From IMG/VR virus record IMGVR_UViG_2917886563_000007: a DNA stretch of 64,000 bases; one strand, 5' to 3'. How positions within the stretch are numbered: the stretch's first letter is position 1; the number at the start of each line of letters is the position of its first letter. The DNA is from a virus (lineage: Duplodnaviria > Heunggongvirae > Uroviricota > Caudoviricetes). Made by a program: the position numbers and the translations under genes. This document shows positions 5,960 through 64,000 of this stretch, piece by piece. The notes under the pieces were generated by a model. The model was not told the DNA's origin and did no database searches. It saw nothing but the letters and a program-made list of their open reading frames with translations.

Positions 5960-6277
5960 TTAGCGTTGAGTGGGATAAACAGCGATGTATGCGTAGCCGC
6001 AACTACCAAGGGTATCGGCTTCGCAGGTGAAACCATTGTGGTACAGGTTGACGCAGTGGGCATGTCGGGGATTCAGTTCACCGGTGATCAGCATCAATTC
6101 CATCTGGCTGATAAAGTGCGGGAAAGTTTCATCCAGTTTCCGGCATTCGGCGTCACTGAACTTACCGATGATGCTGGCCCGGTCAGCCAGGTAATGCAGC
6201 CGGTTCCCCTCCTGCACAAGGCGGGCTCCCAGGCGCGGCGTGATATCCCGCTGCAGGCCCCATGTGGTGTTGCTCAT
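5960..6277 (-). CDS. CbeA/YeeU/YafW-family antitoxin
   Basis: 105-aa ORF directly upstream of the toxin; …CFGARLVQEGNRLHYLADRA…ELMLITGELNPRH… resembles YeeU-type antitoxins. Confidence 0.75.
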   Translation of the reverse strand: MSNTTWGLQRDITPRLGARLVQEGNRLHYLADRASIIGKFSDAECRKLDETFPHFISQMELMLITGELNPRHAHCVNLYHNGFTCEADTLGSCGYAYIAVYPTQR

Positions 6278-6295
6278 TTATAACCTCTTTTATTG

Positions 6296-6529
6296 TCAGT
6301 TCAGGGTGATACTCATCAGGCAGGCATACGGTCCGTTGCGGTCCTGGCGGCGTTGGGCGTATACCGCCAGCACACCGGGAATGTCAGGAACCACCTGACC
6401 GGTGTAATGACAGACGCTACCGTGCCACTGATATTTTCCGGTGCAGTAGCGAAAGATTCGGGACTCAGGATGCTGGCGGTATATCGTCATTGCCCGGCGT
6501 TTACTGATAATTTTCATGTAATACCTCAC
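6296..6529 (-). CDS. YeeT/YkfH-like DUF987 protein
   Basis: 77-aa ORF (…MKIISKRRAMTIYRQHPESRIFRYCTGKYQWHG…) resembling YeeT family; conserved position between RadC-like and antitoxin genes. Confidence 0.65.
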   Translation of the reverse strand: MRYYMKIISKRRAMTIYRQHPESRIFRYCTGKYQWHGSVCHYTGQVVPDIPGVLAVYAQRRQDRNGPYACLMSITLN

Positions 6530-7002
6530 AGCAGACCGTGTCCTGCGAACGAATAGATTTGCCTGCCACCAACAATCAGATGGTCAGGGACACGGATATC
6601 CACCAGTTGAAGTACCTGAGTCAGTCGCTGCGTGAGGGCTTTGTCAGCCTGGCTGGGCGTCGTCTCGCCGGAAGGATGGTTATGCGCCAGTATCACCGCC
6701 GCCGCATTGAAGTGCAGTGCACGTTTGACCACTTCCCGGGGATGAACCTCGGTGCGGTTAATCGTGCCACTAAAGAGCGTCTCATGGGCGATAAGCTGGT
6801 TCTGATTATCCAGATACAGCACCCGGAACTCTTCCCGCTCAAGTGCGGCCATATGCAGTCGCAACCACTCCCGAACGGCGTGAGTGGAGGTGAAGGCTAC
6901 CCCGGGCTCATGCAGATGCCGGTCCAGAATCCTGAGCGCCCGCTGAATGAGACGCCGGTCCTGTGGCGTCATCTCGCCGGGTAAAAAGGAGAGCTGTTTC
7001 AT
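6526..7002 (-). CDS. RadC-like JAB/MPN domain protein (YeeS/YkfG family)
   Basis: 158-aa ORF with HNHPSG…T-P-S-x-AD motif typical of RadC-like JAB domain. Confidence 0.8.
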   Translation of the reverse strand: MKQLSFLPGEMTPQDRRLIQRALRILDRHLHEPGVAFTSTHAVREWLRLHMAALEREEFRVLYLDNQNQLIAHETLFSGTINRTEVHPREVVKRALHFNAAAVILAHNHPSGETTPSQADKALTQRLTQVLQLVDIRVPDHLIVGGRQIYSFAGHGLL

Positions 7003-7017: not shown

Positions 7018-7476
7018 TCAGTCGATGATACGCAGAATGGAGTGAGCTTCAGGATGCTGCAGGGCATAGTCCCGCAAGCGATAATAGTGTGCGGTCATTG
7101 CGTCACATTCTGTACGACAGGCGTGATGGCTGTATTCAATCAGGCAGACCGCGATACCTGCGGCTTCCACACTCATTTCCGCACCATTACCGTTCATGCT
7201 GTTGAACAGATGCCATTTATCACCACCGTCAGCATCAGGGGCCATAAACGCACCGCCATTGCTGAGCGTGTAAAAGGACCAGATACCACCGCTGTACTCA
7301 TCACAGAAGCGCTCCATCCAGCCGAAAATACGGGGTTCCAGCGTTATCCACTGCGGAATAGCGCCAAAATACAGCGGCCAGAAATCGAGGCGCTGTTCGT
7401 CAGGTACTGGTGTTGCAGTGAGGTCAAATTGAGGTTCATTAGCGGACATCAATTCGCGTTTAGTTTGTGTCGTCAT
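7018..7476 (-). CDS. antirestriction protein (KlcA/ArdB-like, YfjX/YafX family)
   Basis: 152-aa ORF; …DEQRLDFWPLYFGAIPQWITLEPRIFGWM…YRLRDYALQHPE… resembles E. coli YfjX/YafX. Confidence 0.75.
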   Translation of the reverse strand: MTTQTKRELMSANEPQFDLTATPVPDEQRLDFWPLYFGAIPQWITLEPRIFGWMERFCDEYSGGIWSFYTLSNGGAFMAPDADGGDKWHLFNSMNGNGAEMSVEAAGIAVCLIEYSHHACRTECDAMTAHYYRLRDYALQHPEAHSILRIID

Positions 7477-7561
7477 GGATATTCTCCGTCAATAAAAACG
7501 CCAGCGACGATGGCTGGCGTATGGGAAATAAAGGGCATGCAGGGATGATGAATGGGTGTGG

Positions 7562-7798
7562 TCAGGAGGAGGATGCTCTGAGGATGCCTGACTTGCGGAT
7601 ATAACGGTTAAGCCCTTCACCGGCATCAGGTTCAAAGCACCACGCCCGCCAGACCATTCGACCTTCAGAGTCTCGAACCACCAGGCGGAAGTGGCTGCAC
7701 TGGTCATCTTCAATAGCGATATTTTTATACCGGCAGGTAACCGCTTCAGCCTGCTGTCGGGTGAACGGTCCCGGTGGCAACATATGAGATTCAGACAT
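7562..7798 (-). CDS. DUF905 protein (YkfF/YfjZ-like)
   Basis: 78-aa ORF …[15 protein letters not shown]…EDDQ…HFRLV…W…FEPDAG… matching the YkfF family pattern. Confidence 0.7.
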
Positions 7799-7875
7799 TC
7801 GGTGTACCTTAAAAGCAAAAGCCCCTGACGCAGACGCGTCAGGGGCTTTGGGAGTATGCAGGTGTCGGGTGATTG

Positions 7876-8286
7876 TCAGTAACCGGTTTGTACCTTATAC
7901 AGCCGCAGGGTTTTACTGCCCCGGACAATTTTCACATACAGGGCATTATCTTTCGTGCCTCGCACAAAACCGGCCTGCACATCGCCCTTACAGTCACCAC
8001 CATCGTAAGGAATGTTGACGCCGGTCTGACGCACCAGATCAATAATCCCGAAGCTTAAGTCCTCACAGGCCGGGCCCGGCAGGTCCTGAATCAGGGCAAA
8101 TTTATGGTCGTCGCTGACACCGGTCAGTGAGCACATGGAGGTGTTGATGTCGTTTCCCTGGCACCAGTACTCCTGGCCGGGATTGTCTTTATCCATCAGG
8201 CTTGCCGGAAGTTGAGCGGCACCGGCACTGAATGCGGCAAGTGACAGAATGAGAGCGGGTACAGCAGAGGTCATTATTTTCAGCAT
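7876..8286 (-). CDS. secreted hypothetical protein (signal peptide, 4 Cys)
   Basis: 136-aa ORF with N-terminal hydrophobic signal sequence ending AAQ. Confidence 0.5.
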
Positions 8287-8352
8287 GGTTTTCTTCCTGA
8301 ATTAATCCAGCCCGCTGTCGGGCAAAATGAGGGAGGTAGGTATCGGGTGTTA

Positions 8353-8790
8353 TCAGAAGCGCCGGTAGCGAAACAGCTCTTTGCCCTGGTACAACGCCAC
8401 CAGGTCGTCATATTCCGGCTTCTTCTGGTTGGGCATAAAGGTCACTACTGTGCCCGGACGGCACAGGTCTTTTACGGTGAGACCGAACTTCTTGTCCGGA
8501 GTAATGGTGAATCCCTTCGACACATCGTTGCGCATGATAGTTATCCAGCCCCACAGGCCGCCTTCGCAGTCTTTAAAAGGTGCTGAACGCACCGTGACCA
8601 TCCCGCCCTGACGGTCAACAGACATGGCTTCGCATTTTCCGGTAACCTGACGATGCGCATCACACCAGAAAATATTCCCGTTGTTGTCATTGACGACAGC
8701 AGGTAGCGTCCGGTTATAGGGCTGGGCCTGAGCCCCTGCACAAAGCAGAAGGCTGCCGGTAATGCCCAGTATTTTAATCAGTGTTTTCAT
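8353..8790 (-). CDS. secreted hypothetical protein (signal peptide, Cys-containing), possible distant paralog of upstream gene
   Basis: 145-aa ORF with signal peptide MKTLIKILGITGSLLLCAGAQA; similar W-C…C…C spacing to neighbour. Confidence 0.5.
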   Translation of the reverse strand: MKTLIKILGITGSLLLCAGAQAQPYNRTLPAVVNDNNGNIFWCDAHRQVTGKCEAMSVDRQGGMVTVRSAPFKDCEGGLWGWITIMRNDVSKGFTITPDKKFGLTVKDLCRPGTVVTFMPNQKKPEYDDLVALYQGKELFRYRRF

Positions 8791-8830
8791 TACGTTGGTC
8801 CTTAACAGGGAAGTATCAGGTAGCGGTGAT

Positions 8831-9367
8831 TCAGGCCCATACAGTCAGTGCCAGCATCACAAGCCATACCCAGAAGTAAGCCGGTTTCTGACCGAGGTTT
8901 TTCGCCCGACGCCACAGATAGAACGGCACCAGCCAGGCCAGTTTGCCGAACGTGGCGGTGTCCACTCCGGCCTTACGCAGGCGTCGTTCATCGAGATACC
9001 CCAGAGCGATATTGAGCAGCAGCGTGATAAACCAGTACTGCCCGCCCGAGACAGCCTCATATGCCTCGTCAAAAGACATTCCGTTCAGCCCTGCAGTCCA
9101 CAGCTCGAGCGCATAACCAATGAAGGGAGCAAATGCCAGCGTCCATACCACTGCACCCGGAATGCGGTTCCCCGGCAGCGCTGGTGGTGTAGTGCTGTGG
9201 AGCAGCGCTGAAGCCAGCGGGGTGGCGGAGACCGGTTGCCAGTCTGTCATGCCCTGTCGCCACACCAGCGTGGCAGCGGTGAGTTCACCGCGCGCAATCA
9301 GGCCAGTGATGTCGTCTTCGGTCACATTGTCGTGACGTATGCCATTTTTCTCGTAATGCCAGGTCAT
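8831..9367 (-). CDS. inner-membrane protein with N-terminal GYF-like (DUF4339-like) domain
   Basis: 178-aa ORF; N-terminal W…G…W motif region followed by hydrophobic helices. Confidence 0.45.
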   Translation of the reverse strand: MTWHYEKNGIRHDNVTEDDITGLIARGELTAATLVWRQGMTDWQPVSATPLASALLHSTTPPALPGNRIPGAVVWTLAFAPFIGYALELWTAGLNGMSFDEAYEAVSGGQYWFITLLLNIALGYLDERRLRKAGVDTATFGKLAWLVPFYLWRRAKNLGQKPAYFWVWLVMLALTVWA

Positions 9368-9392
9368 TGTTTTTCCTTCTTAACAGAGGTAA

Positions 9393-10103
9393 TTAAATCA
9401 GTGTGTTGCCCTGCTCCTCCTCAGAGGGCCCAGGAGACAGGACTTCACGAATACAGCTGAAGTGCGGAAGAGCCCGGATAAAGCCCGCCTGTGTGGTTAA
9501 CTGGCTGAGACGTTTTCGCGGGGTAAAAGTGGTGTTCAGGACTGTCACCGCATGGATGGTCGCCAGAGGGTGCACGGTGATATGCCCGTTAAGTTCACCA
9601 GTGAGGTACCAGCAGCCGTCGAGTGATATCAGGCGGTACGGGGCCAGCCCGTCACAGCGCTCTCCCTCGGCCAGCAGCAGTACCCGCTTGCAGGCGGTAA
9701 TGGCACTGACAAGACGGTAGAACACCAGTGAGATGGACGGTGATATAGTCTGTGGCGGCTGCCACACCAGGCACGGCATCCCTCCTGCAGTGAGCAGCAT
9801 GCCCGCCAGACGCCGGTCCAGCCCCGGAAAAATATCGGCCAGTCCGGCCCGGTGCGCGAAGGTCAGCGCATCGAGCTCGCCCTGTACGCCCCCACCGGTG
9901 CTACGCAGGCGGCATTGCCCCCGTCGATACTCAAGGTCGAGGTACAGCAGCCGTTCACGAAAATCCCGTCGCAGGGTACGGACTGACACACCAAACTCTG
10001 CAGCAAGTCGCGTCATGTTCAGCGTTTCACCGGCAACCAGGCGGCTGATTATCAGTGACAGCCTGACAGCCAGCCGGTCGTGACGGCGCTCTGCCTGTGT
10101 CAT
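9393..10103 (-). CDS. HTH-WYL domain transcriptional regulator (YfjR-like)
   Basis: 236-aa ORF; N-terminal HTH (…LNMTRLAAEFGVSVRTLRRD…) and C-terminal WYL-type region (…LISLDGCWYLTGE…). Confidence 0.65.
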   Translation of the reverse strand: MTQAERRHDRLAVRLSLIISRLVAGETLNMTRLAAEFGVSVRTLRRDFRERLLYLDLEYRRGQCRLRSTGGGVQGELDALTFAHRAGLADIFPGLDRRLAGMLLTAGGMPCLVWQPPQTISPSISLVFYRLVSAITACKRVLLLAEGERCDGLAPYRLISLDGCWYLTGELNGHITVHPLATIHAVTVLNTTFTPRKRLSQLTTQAGFIRALPHFSCIREVLSPGPSEEEQGNTLI

Positions 10104-54078: not shown

Positions 54079-57000
54079 ATGGGTAAAGGCAGCAGTAAGG
54101 GGCATACCCCGCGCGAAGCGAAGGACAACCTGAAATCCACGCAGTTGCTGAGTGTGATCGATGCTATCAGCGAAGGGCCGATTGAAGGTCCGGTGGATGG
54201 ATTAAAAAGCGTGCTGCTGAACAGTACACCGGTGCTGGACAGTGAGGGGAATACCAACATCTCCGGTGTCACGGTGGTGTTCCGGGCAGGTGAGCAGGAG
54301 CAGACACCGCCGGAGGGATTTGAATCCTCCGGTTCCGAGACGGTACTGGGTACGGAAGTGAAATACGACACGCCGATCACCCGGACTATCACGTCTGCAA
54401 ATATCGACCGTCTGCGCTTTACCTTCGGTGTGCAGGCACTGGTGGAAACCACCTCAAAGGGTGACAGGAATCCGTCGGAAGTCCGCCTGCTGGTTCAGAT
54501 ACAACGTAACGGTGGCTGGGTGACAGAAAAAGACATCACCATTAAGGGCAAAACCACGTCGCAGTATCTGGCCTCAGTGGTGGTGGATAACCTGCCGCCG
54601 CGCCCGTTTAATATCCGGATGCGCAGGATGACGCCGGACAGCACCACAGACCAGCTGCAGAACAAAACACTCTGGTCGTCATACACCGAAATCATCGATG
54701 TGAAACAGTGCTACCCGAACACGGCACTGGTTGGCGTACAGGTGGACTCGGAGCAGTTCGGCAGCCAGCAGGTGAGCCGTAATTATCATCTTCGCGGGCG
54801 CATTCTGCAGGTGCCGTCGAACTATAACCCGCAGACGCGACAATACAGCGGTATCTGGGACGGAACGTTTAAGCCAGCATACAGCAACAACATGGCATGG
54901 TGTCTGTGGGATATGCTGACCCACCCGCGCTACGGCATGGGGAAACGTCTTGGTGCGGCGGATGTGGATAAATGGGCGCTGTATGTCATCGGCCAGTACT
55001 GCGACCAGTCAGTGCCGGACGGCTTTGGCGGCACGGAGCCGCGCATCACCTGTAATGCGTACCTGACCACACAGCGCAAGGCGTGGGATGTGCTCAGTGA
55101 TTTCTGCTCGGCGATGCGCTGTATGCCGGTATGGAACGGGCAGACGCTGACGTTCGTGCAGGACCGACCATCAGATAAGGTGTGGACCTATAACCGCAGT
55201 AATGTGGTGATGCCGGATGATGGCGCGCCGTTCCGCTACAGCTTCAGCGCCCTGAAGGACCGCCATAATGCCGTTGAGGTGAACTGGATTGACCCGGATA
55301 ACGGCTGGGAGACGGCGACAGAGCTTGTGGAGGACACGCAGGCCATTGCCCGTTACGGTCGTAACGTCACGAAGATGGATGCCTTTGGCTGTACCAGCCG
55401 GGGGCAGGCGCACCGCGCCGGGCTGTGGCTGATTAAAACGGAACTGCTGGAAACGCAGACCGTGGATTTCAGCGTGGGCGCAGAAGGCCTTCGCCATGTG
55501 CCGGGCGATGTTATTGAAATCTGCGATGATGACTACGCGGGGATCAGCATCGGCGGGCGCGTGCTGGCGGTGAACAGCCAGACGCGGACACTGACGCTCG
55601 ACCGTGAAATCACGCTGCCATCCTCCGGCACCACGCTGATAAGCCTGGTTGACGGTGAGGGTAATCCGGTCAGTGTGGAGGTCCAGTCCGTCACCGACGG
55701 CGTGAAAGTGCAAGTGAGTCGGGTTCCTGACGGGATAGCTGAATACAGCGTATGGGGGCTGAAGCTGCCGACGCTGCGCCAGCGCCTGTTCCGCTGCGTG
55801 AGTATCCGTGAGAATGACGACGGCACGTATGCCATCACCGCTGTGCAGCATGTGCCGGAGAAAGAGGCCATCGTGGATAACGGGGCGCACTTTGACGGCG
55901 ACCAGAGCGGCACGGTGAATGGTGTCACGCCGCCAGCGGTGCAGCATCTGACCGCAGAAGTCACCGCAGACAGCGGGGAATACCAGGTGCTGGCGCGCTG
56001 GGATACGCCGAAGGTGGTGAAGGGGGTGAGCTTTATGCTTCGCCTGACCGTGGCAGCGGATGACGGCAGTGAGCGGCTGGTCAGCACGGCCCGGACGACA
56101 GAAACCACATACCGCTTCACGCAACTGGCGCTGGGAAACTACAGGCTGACAGTCCGGGCGGCAAATGCCTGGGGGCAGCAGGGCGATCCGGCGTCGGTAT
56201 CGTTCCGGATTGCCGCACCGGCAGCGCCGTCGCGGATTGAGCTGACGCCGGGCTATTTTCAGATAACCGCCACGCCGCATCTTGCCGTTTATGACCCGAC
56301 GGTACAGTTTGAATTCTGGTTCTCGGAAAAGCGGATTGCGGATATCAGGCAGGTTGAAACCACAGCCCACTATCTTGGCACGGCGCTGTACTGGATAGCC
56401 GCCAGTATCAATATCAAACCGGGCCATGATTATTATTTTTATATCCGCAGTGTGAACACCGTTGGCAAATCGGCATTCGTGGAGGCTGTCGGTCGGGCGA
56501 GCGATGATGCGGAAGGTTACCTGGATTTTTTCAAAGGCCAGATAACCGAATCCCATCTCGGCAAGGAGCTGCTGGAAAAAGTCGAGCTGACGGAGGATAA
56601 CGCCAGCAAACTGGAGGAGTTCTCGAAAGAGTGGAAAGACGCCAACGATAAATGGAATGCCATGTGGGGCGTCAAAATTGAGCAGACCGAAGACGGCAAA
56701 CATTATGTCGCGGGGCTTGGCCTCAGCATGGAGGATACAGAGGAAGGCAAACTGAGCCAGTTCCTGGTTGCCGCTAACCGTATCGCGTTTATTGACCCGG
56801 CAAACGGGAATGAAACGCCGATGTTTGTGGCGCAGGGCAACCAGATATTCATGAACGAAGTGTTCCTGAAGTATCTGACGGCTCCCACCATTACCAGCGG
56901 CGGCAATCCGCCGGTATTTTCCCTGACACCGGACGGGCGGCTGACGGCGAAAAATGCCGATATCAGCGGTAACGTGAATGCGAACTCCGGGACGCTCAAC

Positions 57001-57492
57001 AACGTCACGATAAATGAGAACTGTACGATTAAGGGAATGCTCGAGGCTACTCAGGTCAGAGGTGACTTCGTTAAAGCTGTATCTAAGCCATTCCCGAAAA
57101 AAACTGGCTCGTGGGGCGATACGGAAACACCAGGCGGGACGGTTACAGTCACCATTTACGATGATCATAACTTTGATCGCCAGATTATTATTCCGCCCAT
57201 TATTTTTAATGGTGTGGCGTATGACGATCCGGGGAGCGGTAATAACCCGGGAGGTACGCGATACACGGGTTATGGTTTTGAAGTTCGCAAAAACGGCGTA
57301 TTAATCGCATCCAGAGAAACTAAAGGAGCCATTCCCGGTAGTTACAGTGCGGTTATTGATATGCCGAGTGGTGGTGGTAGTGTCACTCTGGAGTTTAAGA
57401 TTTTCCAGAAAGGCAATCAGGGCGCAGGTAACATCACAGACTGTACGGTGATTGTGACCAAAAAAGCTGCTTCCGGTATCAGTATCCGTTGA
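54079..57492 (+). CDS. J: central tail fibre / host specificity protein J, with divergent C-terminal receptor-binding region
   Basis: 1137-aa ORF; N-terminal about 990 aa match lambda gpJ as recalled, last about 150 aa differ. Confidence 0.9.
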
Positions 57493-57552
57493 AATATTTA
57501 TAACCCCAATACGGGCGCCAGAAATGGCGCCTTTTATATTTGTGGAGTGAGT

Positions 57553-59922
57553 ATGGCAGTACAGATTTCAGGTGTGCTGAAAGATGGTGCGGGAAAACCA
57601 ATACAGAACTGCACTATTCAACTGAAGGCAAAGCGTAACAGCACCACGGTACTGGTGAACACGGTGGCCTCTGAAAATCCGGATGAAGCCGGGCGTTACA
57701 GCATGGATGTTGAGTATGGCCAGTACAGCGTTATCCTGCTGGTTGAAGGTTTTCCGCCTTCACATGCCGGAACCATTACCGTCTATGAAGGTTCCAGTCC
57801 GGGGACGCTGAATGATTTTCTCGGTGCCATGACGGAAGATGATGTCATGCCGGAGGCATTGCGCCGTTTTGAGGCTATGGTGGAAGAAGCAGCACGTAAC
57901 GCTGAAGCTGCCTCTCAGAGCGCAGCGGCGGCAAAGAAATCCGAAACTGCAGCGGCATCATCGAAGAACGCGGCGAAAACCTCAGAAACGAATGCAGCTA
58001 ACAGCGCACAGGCGGCAGCGGCCTCACAGACTGCATCGGCAAACTCCGCGACAGCAGCCAAAAAATCAGAAACCAACGCGAAAAATAGCGAAACAGCCGC
58101 AAAGACGAGCGAAACCAACGCAAAGTCCAGCCAGACGGCAGCGAAAACCAGCGAAACGAATGCCAAAGCCAGTGAAACTGCGGCGAAAAACAGCCAGGCT
58201 GCAGCAGCTGAAAGTGAGAGCGCGGCAGCCGGTTCTGCGACTTCAGCAGCCGGATCAGCAACTGCTGCGGTTAACAGTCAGAAAGCAGCGAAGACGAGTG
58301 AAACTAACGCAAAGTCCAGCCAGACGGCAGCGAAGACCAGCGAAACAAATGCCAAAGCCAGCGAAACTGCGGCGAAAAACAGTCAGGATGCAGCGGCCCA
58401 AAGCGAGAGTGCCGCAGCTGGTTCTGCAAGTGCGGCGGCTTCTTCTGCCACTGCATCAGCCAACAGTCAAAAAGCTGCAAAAACCAGTGAAACCAACGCA
58501 AAGGCGAGCGAGACTGCGGCGGCTAACTCGGCGAAAGCATCCGCTGCAAGCCAGACAGCGGCTAAAGCAAGTGAAGATGCAGCCAGGGAGTACGCAAGCC
58601 AGGCAGCTGAGCCGTATAAACAAGTTTTGCAGCCGTTGCCTGATGTGTGGATACCGTTTAATGACTCGATGGATATGATCACCGGATTTGGCCCGGGATA
58701 TAAAAAAATAACAGTGCGCGATGATGTGGTCACTATACCATCCGACAAAATTGTCCCGTTTTCCCGCGCGAGTTCCGCGACCTATATCAATAAGTCCGGC
58801 GCTCTTACCATTGCAGAAATTAATGAGCCACGTTTTGAAAAAGAAGGGCTGTTAATTGAAGGGCAGAGAACTAACTATCTAAAAAATTCTAATACACCGG
58901 AATTGTGGTACTACCACAGTTTACTGGCGAAAGAGTATGGGGTTGATAATTACGGTTTTAATTATGCAACCGTCACCGTGACAGACAGTCTTGTAGGCAC
59001 AACCAGTAGTTATCAGATTCATAGTGTAACAGGAGAGAACAGGTTTTCTCTGTCCATCGGTGAAACCTGCACTTTTTCTGCCCGCTTTCGTGGAGTTAAT
59101 TCACGTTGTCGCGTCCATATATCTCTTGTTATTGGCGAAAATGTTAAAACATCCGTTGATGTATGTCTGGAGCCAGATACAGGTGAGGTTAAGGCGTACG
59201 GTAATAAGGCGCTGGTGACATTCAGAACGGAAAAACAGGGGGACTGGTGTTACTTTGAAACAACATATACCGCCGCAGAGAATATTGACGAAGTGGTATG
59301 CGGTTTTTTTATAACCAATCCTGAAGATGGTGGTTTTTCTTCTGATTCGTCATTAACAATGACTACGCCGCAAATTGAAAAAGGGCCATGCGCTTCATCG
59401 TTTATTATTTCCGGAAACACACCAACCACGCGCGCCAGTGATATGGTTATTTTTTCAACCAGAAATAACATAAGTTCTGTCCCTTTAAGCTGTCTTGTTG
59501 AAATACATAAAAATTGGGACTCTACGCCAAATCAGGCCCCACGAATTTTAACCACTATTGGCGTGGCGACTAATGATGAACAACTGGTATTTGCTTTCAG
59601 GAAGCCTACAAGTCCGGATGTAGAGCCTTTACCTTATGTTCAGTTTGGAGTGAGATCTGCATATCTTAGTCCATCTGTGAAGGCCGGGCGCAAAATGATT
59701 GCTGGTTTTGTCTGTAATAGCTCGACTGAATTTCGTTGCTGTTGTAATGGTTACCTGTCACCTGTTCAGACTTCGTCATGGAAGAATACCGGAGCTGCAC
59801 ATGAAATACGTATTGGGGGAACTTCTGCTGGCGGAGACCGCCACTTGTTTGGTCACGTTCGTAACCTGAGAATATGGCATAAAGAATTAACTGATGCGCA
59901 AATGGGGGAGAGTATTAAATGA
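57553..59922 (+). CDS. stf: side tail fibre protein (Stf-like N-terminus, repeat region, distinct C-terminal jelly-roll-like domain)
   Basis: ORF 57547..59922; MAVQISGVLKDGAGKPIQNCTIQLKAKRNSTTV… as lambda Stf N-terminus; SETNAK/TAAK repeat region; C-terminus ends …HVRNLRIWHKELTDAQMGESIK. Confidence 0.8.
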   Translation: MAVQISGVLKDGAGKPIQNCTIQLKAKRNSTTVLVNTVASENPDEAGRYSMDVEYGQYSVILLVEGFPPSHAGTITVYEGSSPGTLNDFLGAMTEDDVMPEALRRFEAMVEEAARNAEAASQSAAAAKKSETAAASSKNAAKTSETNAANSAQAAAASQTASANSATAAKKSETNAKNSETAAKTSETNAKSSQTAAKTSETNAKASETAAKNSQAAAAESESAAAGSATSAAGSATAAVNSQKAAKTSETNAKSSQTAAKTSETNAKASETAAKNSQDAAAQSESAAAGSASAAASSATASANSQKAAKTSETNAKASETAAANSAKASAASQTAAKASEDAAREYASQAAEPYKQVLQPLPDVWIPFNDSMDMITGFGPGYKKITVRDDVVTIPSDKIVPFSRASSATYINKSGALTIAEINEPRFEKEGLLIEGQRTNYLKNSNTPELWYYHSLLAKEYGVDNYGFNYATVTVTDSLVGTTSSYQIHSVTGENRFSLSIGETCTFSARFRGVNSRCRVHISLVIGENVKTSVDVCLEPDTGEVKAYGNKALVTFRTEKQGDWCYFETTYTAAENIDEVVCGFFITNPEDGGFSSDSSLTMTTPQIEKGPCASSFIISGNTPTTRASDMVIFSTRNNISSVPLSCLVEIHKNWDSTPNQAPRILTTIGVATNDEQLVFAFRKPTSPDVEPLPYVQFGVRSAYLSPSVKAGRKMIAGFVCNSSTEFRCCCNGYLSPVQTSSWKNTGAAHEIRIGGTSAGGDRHLFGHVRNLRIWHKELTDAQMGESIK
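58100..58440 (+). repeat. tandem ~189-bp coding repeats inside stf
   Basis: 58101-58250 and 58290-58440 are near-identical (…gcaaagtccagccagacggcagcgaa(a/g)accagcgaaac…); further degenerate copies upstream. Confidence 0.8.
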
Positions 59923-60200
59923 AAGATTTAACACTCAAATTTGCAGACAGGGCCGACTTTTCGGCCTTCATGGATAGCACGGGCTATTATGATGACGAGT
60001 CGATGCAGGATGATATTCTTATTGACGTGATAGGTAACGTGTACAAAGAAACCGGAGAACTTACTGAAGATGGCGAGCCGGTATGTGTTAAGGAAGACGG
60101 ATATTTTGTAAACATGCGCATCATTAATGATGTGAAAACACCGTCAATATTCGATGAATACGTGGTTGCTGTTGAGCATCAACTTCGTGGCTGGATGTGA
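59919..60200 (+). CDS. hypothetical protein (fibre-associated position)
   Basis: 93-aa acidic ORF overlapping stf stop by 4 nt. Confidence 0.45.
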   Translation: MKDLTLKFADRADFSAFMDSTGYYDDESMQDDILIDVIGNVYKETGELTEDGEPVCVKEDGYFVNMRIINDVKTPSIFDEYVVAVEHQLRGWM

Positions 60201-60209
60201 GGAAGAAAA

Positions 60210-61250
60210 ATGGCTACATCGACAGTAATTCCTGATGACATCAAAACGCTAAAATCCGATGTTAGTAAACTAAAAACTGATCAAGGAAGCTATGCAACAA
60301 AATCATATGTAGACAATAAAACAACATGGAATAGTTATTGTAATGTAATCTATGATCAAAAGTCATTGCCCACAACTGGAACTATATTTAGCGGTAAGAT
60401 GCACTTGTCAAATAAGACAGGAGAAACCGAAAACGCTTATAGTGAGATGTACACCAGAAAAAATATTGACGGCACTAAAGATACAATGACAAGGATTGTC
60501 ACACACAATGGAACAAAAGGTATCTTCTGGGATTTTAGCGATCTTTACGGTGGGACATTGATTTTCCCAGGAAATGAAGGTTACTTGAAAATGGGTAAGT
60601 GCCTCATGTCTTATGGGAATCGTGTTGATAACGCCATGATTAAATTTGATTACACAGACACATTACAAATCAAATATGCTAATCATGGGTCAACCATGAC
60701 ATTAAATACACAGGGAACCGCTCACGCTGGCGTAACAACTCGAATATGGGGCAATTCTAGCCGCCCGGTTGTTTATGAAGTTGGCGTAGATGAGGCTCTG
60801 TATATGTTCTACGCACAGAAAACTACCAGCAATACCTACGAATTAACGGTTAACGGCGCGTGTAATGCAAGTGCATTTAATCAAGGCTCTGACCGGGATC
60901 TGAAAGACAATATTCAGGTGATCGATAATGCAACCGACCGCATTCGTAAAATGAACGGCTATACATACACGCTTAAAGAAAACGGTATGCCTTACGCTGG
61001 TGTTATTGCACAAGAAGCCCTGGAAGCCATCCCCGAAGCCGTAGGGTCTATGATGAAATATCCAGACGGTGGGAGTGGATTAGATGGAGAAGAAGGTGAA
61101 CGGTATTACACTGTAGATTATTCTGGTGTTACTGGCTTGCTTGTTCAGGTAGCCAGAGAGTCAGACGACAGAATAACAGCACTGGAAGAAGAAAACGCAG
61201 AATTAAGACAAAGATTATCTGCAATTGAGGCGACGCTTGTGTCTAAATAA
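60210..61250 (+). CDS. tail fibre/tailspike protein with C-terminal intramolecular chaperone (peptidase S74-like) domain
   Basis: 346-aa ORF; C-terminal …SDRDLKDNIQVIDNATDRIRKMNGYTYTLKENG…AGVIAQEALEAIPEAV…DYSGVTGLLVQVARE…ITALEEENAELRQRL typical of autoproteolytic chaperone domains of phage fibres. Confidence 0.6.
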   Translation: MATSTVIPDDIKTLKSDVSKLKTDQGSYATKSYVDNKTTWNSYCNVIYDQKSLPTTGTIFSGKMHLSNKTGETENAYSEMYTRKNIDGTKDTMTRIVTHNGTKGIFWDFSDLYGGTLIFPGNEGYLKMGKCLMSYGNRVDNAMIKFDYTDTLQIKYANHGSTMTLNTQGTAHAGVTTRIWGNSSRPVVYEVGVDEALYMFYAQKTTSNTYELTVNGACNASAFNQGSDRDLKDNIQVIDNATDRIRKMNGYTYTLKENGMPYAGVIAQEALEAIPEAVGSMMKYPDGGSGLDGEEGERYYTVDYSGVTGLLVQVARESDDRITALEEENAELRQRLSAIEATLVSK

Positions 61251-61286
61251 TATTAAGGGGCCGAGCGCCCCGTTTTATTGGGTAGG

Positions 61287-61586
61287 ATGAAAATGGATAT
61301 AACACCTTTCCTTCATGCACTTTGTGCTGTGGCTGCGCAGGTACTGATTGGCCTTTTTACCGGAAACTGGGCTTACGGAGCTATAGCCGGTTGTACGTTC
61401 TTCATTGCGCGTGAACACACCCAGGCAGAATATCGCTGGATTGAAATGTTCGGGCACGGCAAGCGTATGAATATGCCGTGGTGGGGCGGTTTTGATCCAC
61501 GCGCGTGGGATGTAGCAAGCCTGATGGATTTTTCTGTGCCGGTGGTGGCGTGTCTGCTGGTCTGGGTATTTATCCGTTCAACATAA
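61287..61586 (+). CDS. small membrane protein
   Basis: ORF 61278..61586; two hydrophobic segments (…FLHALCAVAAQVLIGLF… and …FSVPVVACLLVWVFI…). Confidence 0.45.
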   Translation: MKMDITPFLHALCAVAAQVLIGLFTGNWAYGAIAGCTFFIAREHTQAEYRWIEMFGHGKRMNMPWWGGFDPRAWDVASLMDFSVPVVACLLVWVFIRST

Positions 61587-61894
61587 AAAGTCGCAGCAAC
61601 TTGTCATGGCGGAATACTGCGGCTGGCTGGTGAGCTATCGATAGTGCGAGTATGGAATGATTTCCAGCCATTATAGATTTTACGTATTTTTTTGCATGAG
61701 AGGATTTGCACCACCTCCCACCGACCATCTATGACTATACGCCACCATTTCTAGGGCTGCTATGTGCCAGAAGCGGACATTATGACAGCCAGGAAGCCCT
61801 TATCTGAACGAAAAAAATAATGTCGTTGGGATGGTTTACTTTACAATGTCAGTTTTAAACAGCCTACAAAACAGGTGATCACGTGCATGCCAAC

Positions 61895-62785
61895 ATGATT
61901 GAATACCTAAATATTTTCATACAGGTTGTTGAGCAGGGTAGCTTCACTAAAGCTGCTGATGTACTTCAGATCCATCGCCCCACCGTGAGCAAAGCAATAC
62001 AGCAGATAGAGCATGATCTGGGTGTAAAACTCATTTATCGCACAACCCGAAAGCTGAGCGTTACTGCTGAAGGGGATGAGTTCTATCATCATGCCAGGCA
62101 TGTCCTGGCCGAAGTTAATGACATGATGGCCAGTTTTTCACCGACTCTTCCACCGCGAGGACGCCTGAGACTTGATGTGCCCCTGGCGCTGGCGCATTCC
62201 ATATTGATCCCTAATCTTAGGCATTTTCAGACACTGTATCCAGGTATTGAAGTTGTGCTGGTTTCTTCGGATAAAAAAACTGATTTGATCACGGAAGGCG
62301 TAGATTGCCTTATCCGCCTGGGTGCGCTTCAGGATTCTAGTTTTATATCCAGACGTCTTGGTGACATCCGGATGGTTACCTGTGCAGCCCCGTCTTACCT
62401 GCAGCAGCATGAGCGGCCAGAAACACTTGCGGATCTGGATAAACATCGGGCAATTAACTTTTTTAGCGACCACAGTCGTGACGTCATGGAATGGAAGTTT
62501 ATCGAAAACGGGAGCATTGTTTCGCTACGTCCTGCGGGCAGCCTGCTGGTTGATAATTCCGATATTCTGCTTTCCTGTGCTCTGGCTGGTCTGGGCATTA
62601 TCCAAGCTACCTATGATGCCGTTGCTCCCCATATTGCTTCCGGCGCTCTTGAAGAGATTCTGCCGCAATACCCATCGGTGTCAAAGCCCGTGTCAGTGAT
62701 GTATCCCGACAGGCGCTACCTTTCTCCAAAAGTGCGCGTCTTTATCGACTGGTTCAGTGATGTTCTGGCCACGCAGATCCGCTGA
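61895..62785 (+). CDS. LysR-family transcriptional regulator
   Basis: ORF 61883..62785; N-terminal HTH (…GSFTKAADVLQIHRPTVSKAIQQIE…LGVKLIYRTTRKLSVT…). Confidence 0.85.
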   Translation: MIEYLNIFIQVVEQGSFTKAADVLQIHRPTVSKAIQQIEHDLGVKLIYRTTRKLSVTAEGDEFYHHARHVLAEVNDMMASFSPTLPPRGRLRLDVPLALAHSILIPNLRHFQTLYPGIEVVLVSSDKKTDLITEGVDCLIRLGALQDSSFISRRLGDIRMVTCAAPSYLQQHERPETLADLDKHRAINFFSDHSRDVMEWKFIENGSIVSLRPAGSLLVDNSDILLSCALAGLGIIQATYDAVAPHIASGALEEILPQYPSVSKPVSVMYPDRRYLSPKVRVFIDWFSDVLATQIR

Positions 62786-62934
62786 AGCAGGCGGATTGTT
62801 AATGGATAATTAATACTGAAGTTCCCTCTCAGCTATTTCTGGTGTGTTTGTAACAACGTAGATTGTTCACAAATGATTCGGGCATCCCTTCGGCATTATT
62901 CTGAAGGAGTGCCTTTAACTGAAGAGAGCTGAAT

Positions 62935-63927
62935 ATGTCTAAAGTTATTACCTTTAACCGTACCGGAGGCCCGGAAGTGCTGGAATTTGTTGATGTACAG
63001 GTGCCTGCGCCGACAGCGGGTGAAGTGCAGATCCGCGTACATGCGATAGGTATCAACCGTGCAGAAATCATGTACCGCAACGGCCAGTATGTTATTGAGC
63101 CGGAATTTCCGGCACGTCTTGGTTATGAAGCGGCTGGCGTTGTGCAGGCCGTAGGTGAGAATGTTGATGAGTTTACCATTGGAGATCTGGTCAGCGTTAT
63201 CCCTTCATTTATGTTTAATGAATACGGTATGTACGGTGAAGTGGTCAATGCACCTGTGCATGCTATCGTGAAGCATCCTGAAAACCTTTCTTTTGAGGAA
63301 GCCGCTGCAAGCTGGATGATGTATGTCACCGCTTATGGTGCGCTGGTTGAATATGGCAATCTTCAGGCTGGTCAGAATGTTGTGATCCGCGCAGCATCAA
63401 GCAGCGTAGGTCTGGCTGCCATACAGATAGCTAACATGCTGGGTGCAAACCCAATTGCACTCACTCGGACCTCTGAAAAAAGTGAAATGCTACTGAAAGC
63501 TGGCGCAGCTGCCGTCATTGCTACTGCAGAGCTGGATATGGTTGCTGAAATCAATCGAACAACAGATGGCGTAGGTGCCCATATTGTTTTTGATCCCGTC
63601 GGCGGGCCGGACGTGGCAAAACTGACGCAGGTGATGGCATCACAGGGCATGTTTTTCCAGTATGGCGCGCTCGATAGCCGTGACATGCTTGTGCCTGTAT
63701 TTAATATTCTCGGTAAGCATCTCACTCTGCGTGGATATGAGCTGTTTGAAATCACGACTGATTCTGAAAAAATGGCGCGCGCAAAATCCTTCATAACAGA
63801 AGGCTTACGAGCTGGCAAACTGAAACCGGTCATCGATAAAACGTTCCCGTTCGAAGAGATTGCAGACGCCCAGCGCTATATGGAGGCCAATGGCCAGGTA
63901 GGCAAAATAGTCGTGACCGTTGAGTAA
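62935..63927 (+). CDS. zinc-type alcohol dehydrogenase / quinone oxidoreductase family protein
   Basis: 330-aa ORF; MDR fold signatures (…GEVQIRVHAIGINRAE…, …AASSSVGLAAIQIA…). Confidence 0.8.
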   Translation: MSKVITFNRTGGPEVLEFVDVQVPAPTAGEVQIRVHAIGINRAEIMYRNGQYVIEPEFPARLGYEAAGVVQAVGENVDEFTIGDLVSVIPSFMFNEYGMYGEVVNAPVHAIVKHPENLSFEEAAASWMMYVTAYGALVEYGNLQAGQNVVIRAASSSVGLAAIQIANMLGANPIALTRTSEKSEMLLKAGAAAVIATAELDMVAEINRTTDGVGAHIVFDPVGGPDVAKLTQVMASQGMFFQYGALDSRDMLVPVFNILGKHLTLRGYELFEITTDSEKMARAKSFITEGLRAGKLKPVIDKTFPFEEIADAQRYMEANGQVGKIVVTVE

Positions 63928-64000
63928 TCCTTACCACAGCATTTTATAAATGAGCCTGGTGAAGCCTGGATATTATCCAGGCTTCGATGCAATGGCTCCG

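Follow-up and report, generated by a model that had tools for sequence, protein, structure and literature searches.

A lambda-type side tail fibre with a lectin-like C-terminal head and a conserved set of companion genes in an Escherichia coli prophage

The viral record IMGVR_UViG_2917886563_000007 of the IMG/VR database was analysed over a stretch of 64,000 nucleotides (hereafter, the window), with emphasis on a long open reading frame (ORF) located behind the tail gene J homologue. Sequence comparisons identify this ORF as the side (lateral) tail fibre gene (stf) of a lambda-like Escherichia coli prophage, a member of an abundant family. Its product, Stf, is a three-part protein, with a lambda-type attachment domain, a shaft of 35 heptads and a C-terminal head of 429 amino acids (aa). 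We regard as probable a full explanation in which a lambda-type fibre bears a glycan-binding lectin head on a recombining shaft, with an optional second tip docked to it. The fibre is already known, as an ordinary, catalogued member of the lambdoid/siphovirus lateral-fibre repertoire; what it lacks is a description that matches its organization.

Identification of the fibre gene and its attachment domain

The reading frame is open over positions 57547-59922 on the + strand, and a GGAG motif is found 5 nt 5' of the ATG at 57553, so that the start given in a preliminary description of this DNA is likely correct and the product is 789 aa long. From aa 1 to aa 788, this product matches the PHROG family phrog_1419 ('tail protein') end to end (profile positions 1-793, 1250.9 bits, E=0), and an identical copy of the protein occurs in IMG/VR (locus L008). 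The gene is directly downstream of a J homologue (54079-57492) in a lambda-type tail module; this homologue displays six dedicated J-protein Pfam domains, together with weak fn3 and Y_Y_Y matches. Long antisense or out-of-frame ORFs in the repeat region of stf (e.g. 57839-58678) were set aside as by-products of low-complexity repeats.

Residues 1-131 match the Pfam family PF08400 (phage_tail_N) with 224.2 bits for a cut-off of 26.6 (E 6e-67), and residues 1-94 match the Protein Data Bank (PDB) chain 9e7m_Ta, a 'Tail fiber protein' (E 2.6e-49). For the comparison with lambda, the true lambda record was used as a reference, and the record 'Lambda_4C10' was discarded as a Bievrevirus with a fibre gene interrupted by an insertion sequence. 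BLASTP analysis with lambda orf-401 revealed 59% identity over aa 1-328 of the window Stf, the first ca. 117 aa being almost gapless and highly identical. Since this alignment spans aa 1-328, the likeness to lambda covers the attachment domain and the whole shaft. The match of the N-terminal ca. 100 residues to lambda Stf reported in the preliminary description is thus real, but its extent was drawn too short.

The two fibres are alike in their position after J, their PF08400 domain and their Ala/Ser heptad shaft with a KTSETNA motif. They differ in what follows: lambda, whose Stf is encoded by orf-401 and orf-314, has the orf-314 tip and the tfa gene, whereas in the window these are replaced by a head of lectin fold together with a 93-aa protein and a tip fibre of the S74 type. 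No similarity was detected between orf-314 (distal Stf) and the C-terminal head (best E 1.8), and no tfa-like assembly gene was found downstream of stf among the ORFs of the window (ORF list, Pfam and PHROG matches). The earlier claim that the C-terminal domain is unrelated to lambda Stf holds, for a head that corresponds to the last 429 residues.

The C-terminal head

The NCBIfam profile NF048003 ('GTA_spike_fiber') was matched by aa 434-628 over positions 1-181 of 182 (67.2 bits for a cut-off of 36), and a profile built from 18 homologues matched, in the PDB sequence set, Rcc01080 (PDB 6tb9_F3, E 2.5e-14), the head spike fibre of the Rhodobacter capsulatus gene transfer agent (RcGTA). Rcc01080 mediates binding to the Rhodobacter capsule (PMC10218006, PMC7296036), and the homologous region of the window Stf, aa 434-628, can thus be compared with a protein that binds capsular polysaccharide (PMC10218006), a property known for Rcc01080 only. 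Further towards the C-terminus, three homologues (P0021, P0025 and P0029) exceed the cut-off of PF13385 (Laminin_G_3) with 29.9-31.2 bits. An AlphaFold2 (AF2) model of the last 420 residues, computed as a monomer, comprises two well-formed beta-sandwich regions whose top structural matches are non-catalytic binding modules: carbohydrate-binding module (CBM) family CBM40, pentraxins, laminin G (LamG) domains, the Hc domain of botulinum neurotoxin (BoNT) and galectin-8. The head is thus a jelly-roll beta-sandwich resembling solved LamG, pentraxin and CBM structures, and the LamG/concanavalin-like end proposed earlier is supported at the level of the fold by both the homologue scores and the model.

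Several points weigh on the other side. The window protein itself reaches only 21.8 bits with PF13385, under the cut-off of 27.6. The AF2 model is of moderate confidence, with a predicted local distance difference test (pLDDT) score of 67.8 and values below 50 in the first ca. 70 residues and some loops. Finally, the RcGTA fibre is resolved in residues 2-10 only, so that this homologue supplies no binding site.

Across alleles, the N-terminal domain is 87-100% identical and the head 39-99%, with values dropping to 39-50%. Conserved blocks of the head (aa 361-445, 605-665 and 755-789) alternate with variable ones (aa 446-600, in the GTA-spike-like module, and aa 666-750). Receptor-binding proteins typically combine a constant anchor with a distal domain that has diversified. 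Considering this diversification, the lectin fold and the capsule-binding homologue, reversible binding to surface glycans is most likely the function of the head. Adsorption would begin with the heads attaching reversibly to a polysaccharide of the cell surface, O-antigen or capsule, before J meets the terminal receptor, and the two variable blocks would set the glycan specificity. The parallel with RcGTA has its limits in architecture: the single chain of Rcc01080 is anchored to capsid pentons via a short N-terminal peptide, while the module of the window, unlike that of Rcc01080, is located at the end of a tail-fibre shaft and combined with a LamG-like domain.

The downstream gene cassette

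By considering the fibre gene alone, the preliminary description missed a conserved cassette composed of the 93-aa protein, a second fibre gene encoding the tip and a small membrane protein of 97 aa (Table 1). Among 80 IMG/VR loci, the ORF 5' of the 93-aa gene ends in the LamG motif ...RIWHK.LTDAQ.GESI in 75 of 76 cases, and the ORF 3' of it begins with MATSTVIP.DI.TLK in all 74 loci with sequence available; these linkage counts are biased, the loci having been picked by similarity to the tip-associated 93-aa protein, and this weakens them as support for the cassette. In complete E. coli genomes, the junction that runs from the end of the head through the 93-aa gene into the beginning of the tip gene was found in 804 of 5,426 (ca. 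15%), and the whole 3.7-kb stretch in 21, with 92-94% identity.

The 93-aa gene adjoins the fibre gene in lambdoid, N15-like and Nonagvirus phages, and homologues of its product, almost all from Escherichia, exhibit at least 84% identity. Two results bear unfavourably on any role proposed for this protein: it matches nothing in Pfam, NCBIfam or PDB, and its AF2 prediction has a pLDDT of 41, a model that was not used.

The tip protein occurs in two types, of 346 and ca. 234 aa, which have only their first ca. 27 residues in common and combine freely with different head alleles among the IMG/VR loci. In comparisons with several prophages, nucleotide homology is lost 40-60 nt after the start of the tip gene. 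The window thus has, beside stf, a second fibre gene whose product joins a constant N-terminal segment to a variable body. Precedents exist for lateral fibres assembled from two or more proteins (PMC8594841; phage DT57C, PMC10713586), and Maffei et al. described distal lateral-fibre subunits of small siphoviruses with a constant N-terminus and an exchangeable body (PMC8594841). A terminator-like hairpin (61257-61271) is found directly 3' of the tip gene. The 97-aa protein, which closes the cassette with or without a tip gene, is 91-94% identical in relatives and looks like a moron or a membrane protein.

Respective roles of the head and the tip

A tip-less version of this arrangement occurs in a widespread lambdoid prophage adjoining sitABCD, in which a lectin-head Stf is directly followed by a 92-aa protein and the 97-aa protein. 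The corresponding junction was detected in 1,123 of 5,426 complete E. coli genomes (ca. 21%). The tip-less Stf is 673 aa long in intact copies, J and the other tail genes are intact, and the 92-aa protein is 52% identical to the 93-aa protein of the window. Examples of tip-less cassettes are found at positions 6019-6603 of locus L092 and 7102-9704 of locus L097. These prophages suggest that the head probably works as a receptor binder by itself, a reading weakened by the annotation of many tip-less copies as pseudogenes, the Stf of some genomes being recorded as two pieces separated within the heptad repeats.

The small protein is retained where the tip gene is missing, and is therefore a companion of the head, not of the tip. 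A purely connecting function between Stf and tip was dropped as its sole role, since tip-less cassettes retain the 52%-identical homologue. The 93-aa protein would rather serve the lectin head specifically, as a factor in its assembly or as a connector, and the 346-aa S74 fibre would be an optional second receptor-binding tip. Docking through the constant 27-aa N-terminus of the tip, either to the 93-aa protein or to conserved regions of the head, would make the fibre two-part or branched. By analogy with DT57C-type fibres, docking of the tip on the Stf head or on the 93-aa protein is probable; a point that tells against this choice of site is that the best-conserved parts of Stf include the N-terminus as well as parts of the head. 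In the T5-like phage DT57C, according to the available text of the report (PMC10713586), the tail-anchored protein LtfA carries a second receptor-binding protein, LtfB, in a branched, L-shaped fibre. In the window, by contrast, the attachment of the tip to Stf is inferred. The similarity seen to LtfA and LtfB is weak and concerns the heptad shaft of the window, which resembles LtfA, and that same available text describes no counterpart of the 93-aa protein (PMC10713586).

A more ambitious view, which we hold as possible but doubtful, gives the head a dual role, as a glycan-binding receptor domain and as the hub of a modular fibre with two specificities. The 93-aa protein would then be a new connector or assembly factor, and S74 tips would be swapped behind a universal adaptor of 27 aa, in a system shared by temperate lambdoid, N15-like and virulent Nonagvirus coliphages. 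If true, such a dual-role system could serve to retarget lambda-based delivery particles.

It is unlikely that the head acts as a docking hub only, holding the exchangeable S74 tip via a 93-aa connector and leaving host recognition to the tip alone. Tip-less cassettes are common and occur beside intact tail genes; the head is the most variable part of Stf, while the N-terminus of its supposed partner is constant; tip types pair freely with head alleles; and the head is homologous to a capsule-binding fibre.

Still less probable is a head acting as an enzyme, a concanavalin A (ConA)-like glucanase or lyase-type depolymerase degrading capsule or O-antigen, instead of a lectin. The Pfam clan name takes in both lectins and glucanases, alginate-lyase-associated modules are among the fold matches, and weak matches to phage 'depolymerase' chains were recorded. 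These last, however, lie in the heptad shaft, outside the head, and the best structural matches of the head are non-catalytic binding modules. A search of the head for the glucanase motif E-x-D-x(x)-E of the glycoside hydrolase family 16 (GH16) type found none, which also counts against an enzyme. A glycan-binding head, with or without a docked tip, remains the preferred reading.

The shaft and its 189-bp repeat

The shaft is a continuous array of heptads without any phase break, in which Ser occupies position 2 and Ala position 6 in 32 of the 35 heptads each. Its composition, its periodicity and a weak profile match to the rod region of T7 gp17 suggest a trimeric coiled coil. Three chains would form a shaft of ca. 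36 nm, keeping three lectin heads away from the tail tip, an estimate conditional, like that of ca. 9 nm per repeat unit, on the shaft being a helical coiled coil, as inferred.

Superimposed on this array is a higher-order unit of 63 aa (189 bp), which corresponds to nine heptads. Tandem Repeats Finder (TRF) detected a period of 189 with 2.3 copies and 81% matches over 58091-58521. In a lag analysis, 189 alone stood out, with a best 150-nt identity of 0.873, compared with at most 0.647 for other multiples of 21 and at most 0.467 for all remaining lags. The tandem 63-aa repeats of the preliminary description are thus real and well above the heptad background. Some of its wording has to be corrected: the two stretches presented as near-identical 189-bp copies (58101-58250 and 58290-58440) are 150 nt each and 86.7% identical, and the SETNAK heptads are not a separate insertion, being the shaft motif of lambda Stf itself.

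The number of units varies among relatives, as the same description had anticipated in proposing that the repeats might mediate fibre length variation. The distance between the GTLNDF and PLPDVW motifs in homologues is 81, 144, 172, 207, 214, 221 or 277 residues, and all differences are multiples of seven. Heptad-by-heptad comparison identified one 63-aa unit in phage IdasGreatGrand and in E. coli proteins of 727 aa, two units in the window, in PhiR46_1 and in strains S1-CAM-01-C and FDAARGOS_497, and three in the IMG/VR locus L023, with further alleles differing by a single heptad. Two units are the prevailing state in the 80 IMG/VR loci, and the same allele recurs in independent genomes and phages. 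One locus departs from the heptad rule, L047 (IMGVR_UViG_3300029873_000376), with a 41-aa deletion in the shaft that is not a multiple of 7 and sets the heptad register off by one residue; this may reflect a genuine stutter, or else a mistake made in sequencing or assembling the metagenomic contig.

The 189-bp repeat would act as a substrate for unequal homologous recombination, shifting the length of the shaft in steps of 63 aa (ca. 9 nm). Units 80-87% identical and a predominant two-unit allele are better explained by unequal recombination from time to time than by rapid slippage. A fast contingency locus, switching phase or length at high frequency within a population, is highly improbable: although the repeat is tandem, in-frame and within a host-range gene, has multiple copy numbers among relatives and often coincides with broken Stf annotations, its copies are only 80-87% identical instead of near-identical, most of the 80 IMG/VR loci share the same two-unit allele with independent genomes and phages, and every length change keeps the reading frame, which leaves no off-switch.

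Distribution and relatives

Proteins with the same full-length architecture and the same downstream genes are catalogued as PHROG 1419 or, in RefSeq, as 'prophage tail fiber N-terminal domain-containing protein', and include those of PhiR46_1, IdasGreatGrand, Tritos, HannyBb and 2G7b. The window differs from these relatives by allelic features only, namely the number of 63-aa units, the head allele (39-99% identity) and the tip type. For the head module by itself, 1,139 relatives were counted among representatives at 50% identity; most of them form the C-terminal part of proteins that are 400-1,500 residues long.

More distant counterparts are encoded by ESCO3 and JenP1, two members of the genus Nonagvirus (9g-like, Queuovirinae). 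Their full-length homologue of ca. 700 aa is 36-37% identical, with a homologous N-terminus, a heptad shaft and a lectin head, and is followed by a 92/93-aa protein and then by a 351-aa S74 protein. The gene order is thus conserved in both phages despite 36-45% identity. Unlike the window prophage, Nonagvirus phages are virulent and have a different tail tip, a shorter shaft without the 63-aa duplication and no annotated gene for the 97-aa membrane protein.

The fibre was described earlier as chimeric. The front is indeed of lambda type and the end is not, but there is nothing unusual in this combination, which is that of a standard, abundant family found as PHROG 1419, in hundreds of E. coli genomes and in Nonagvirus. 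The preliminary description had named, as grounds for abandoning its view, a standard fibre architecture together with an invariant copy number; the architecture is indeed that of a standard family, but the copy number does vary among relatives.

A strict peptide-pattern scan of genome contigs returned four loci, two from Escherichia ruysiae, one from Escherichia sp. and one from a contig of a metagenome-assembled genome (MAG) labelled 'Collinsella', a result that says little about the taxonomic range. The latter contig (L088, JAGZNZ010000051.1), 2.8 kb long and binned as 'Collinsella sp.', encodes a head domain with 63% identity and is most likely a mis-binned Escherichia phage contig. Literature searches for a characterised LamG-type Stf, or for experiments on the fibre family of the window, found nothing specific, and a preprint on lambda-P2 STF engineering proved to have no bearing on the subject.

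The value of these results is mainly one of annotation. Current labels are limited to 'prophage tail fiber N-terminal domain-containing protein' or 'phage head spike fiber domain-containing protein', and a more useful description is that of a lambda-type anchor and shaft with a lectin-fold head and a fixed set of companion genes. A shaft of quantised length, hypervariable blocks in the head and a swappable tip are features that may help in predicting prophage host range and in retargeting lambda-derived particles. No new principle is involved, since it is well known that lateral fibres can be modular and composed of several proteins, and that fibre genes recombine.

Genomic surroundings

Table 1. 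Location of the side tail fibre gene, its domains and repeats, and the downstream cassette in the window
Feature	Position	Strand	Evidence or remark
Side tail fibre (Stf-like) gene	57553..59922	+	789 aa plus stop; ORF, ribosome-binding site, full-length phrog_1419 match
Tail-attachment domain, lambda Stf type, aa 1-131	57553..57945	+	PF08400, PDB 9e7m_Ta, lambda orf-401 alignment
Shaft, 35 unbroken heptads, aa 108-352 (245 residues)	57874..58608	+	Heptad layout, lambda shaft homology
63-aa/189-bp higher-order unit, copy 1, aa 178-240	58084..58272	+	TRF period 189, repeat search, lag analysis
63-aa/189-bp unit, copy 2, aa 241-303	58273..58461	+	Ca. 80% nt identity to copy 1
Partial third copy, three heptads, aa 304-324	58462..58524	+	TRF 2.3 copies, heptad layout
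C-terminal head, aa 361-789, two beta-sandwich modules, unrelated to lambda Stf tip	58633..59919	+	
RcGTA head-spike-fibre-like module, aa 434-628	58852..59436	+	NF048003, PDB 6tb9_F3; holds most variable block, aa 446-600
LamG-like jelly roll, C-terminal strands, aa 720-783	59710..59901	+	Sub-threshold PF13385; conserved end ...HLFGHVRNLRIWHKELTDAQMGESIK
93-aa acidic protein, isoelectric point 4.1	59919..60200	+	phrog_1361; start overlaps stf stop (ATGA)
346-aa second fibre ('tip') protein	60210..61250	+	phrog_4563, full length; starts nine bases after 93-aa gene
Constant N-terminus of tip, ca. 27 aa (MATSTVIPDDIKTLKSDVSKLKTDQGS), putative docking segment	60210..60290	+	Common to both tip types
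Peptidase_S74 intramolecular chaperone core of tip, aa 227-278	60888..61043	+	PF13884, 53.3 bits for a cut-off of 22, E 3.4e-14
97-aa hydrophobic protein	61293..61586	+	phrog_1443; last cassette gene before host DNA

The spacer between J and stf (57493-57552, 60 nt) contains a terminator-like hairpin (57513-57532) followed by a T-run. The lom gene, present between J and stf in PhiR46_1, IdasGreatGrand and several E. coli prophages, is absent from this position in the window. In related E. coli prophages, a truncated 'tail fiber assembly protein' pseudogene occurs just 3' of the cassette, in L007 along with a pin-type recombinase (region 7683-7802 of locus L005 and 8049-8847 of locus L007); the window is devoid of both. 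The assembly pseudogene and the recombinase may be what is left of an earlier stf-tfa-invertase arrangement that the lectin-head cassette displaced.

Beyond the end of the prophage, the host flank (61600-64000) encodes a LysR-type regulator and a member of the zinc-dependent alcohol dehydrogenase family. This flank was matched in only 17 of the 5,426 complete E. coli genomes, the best match being NCTC9041 with 98%, which suggests either that the prophage is inserted in a rare accessory region or that its host belongs to an uncommon Escherichia lineage.

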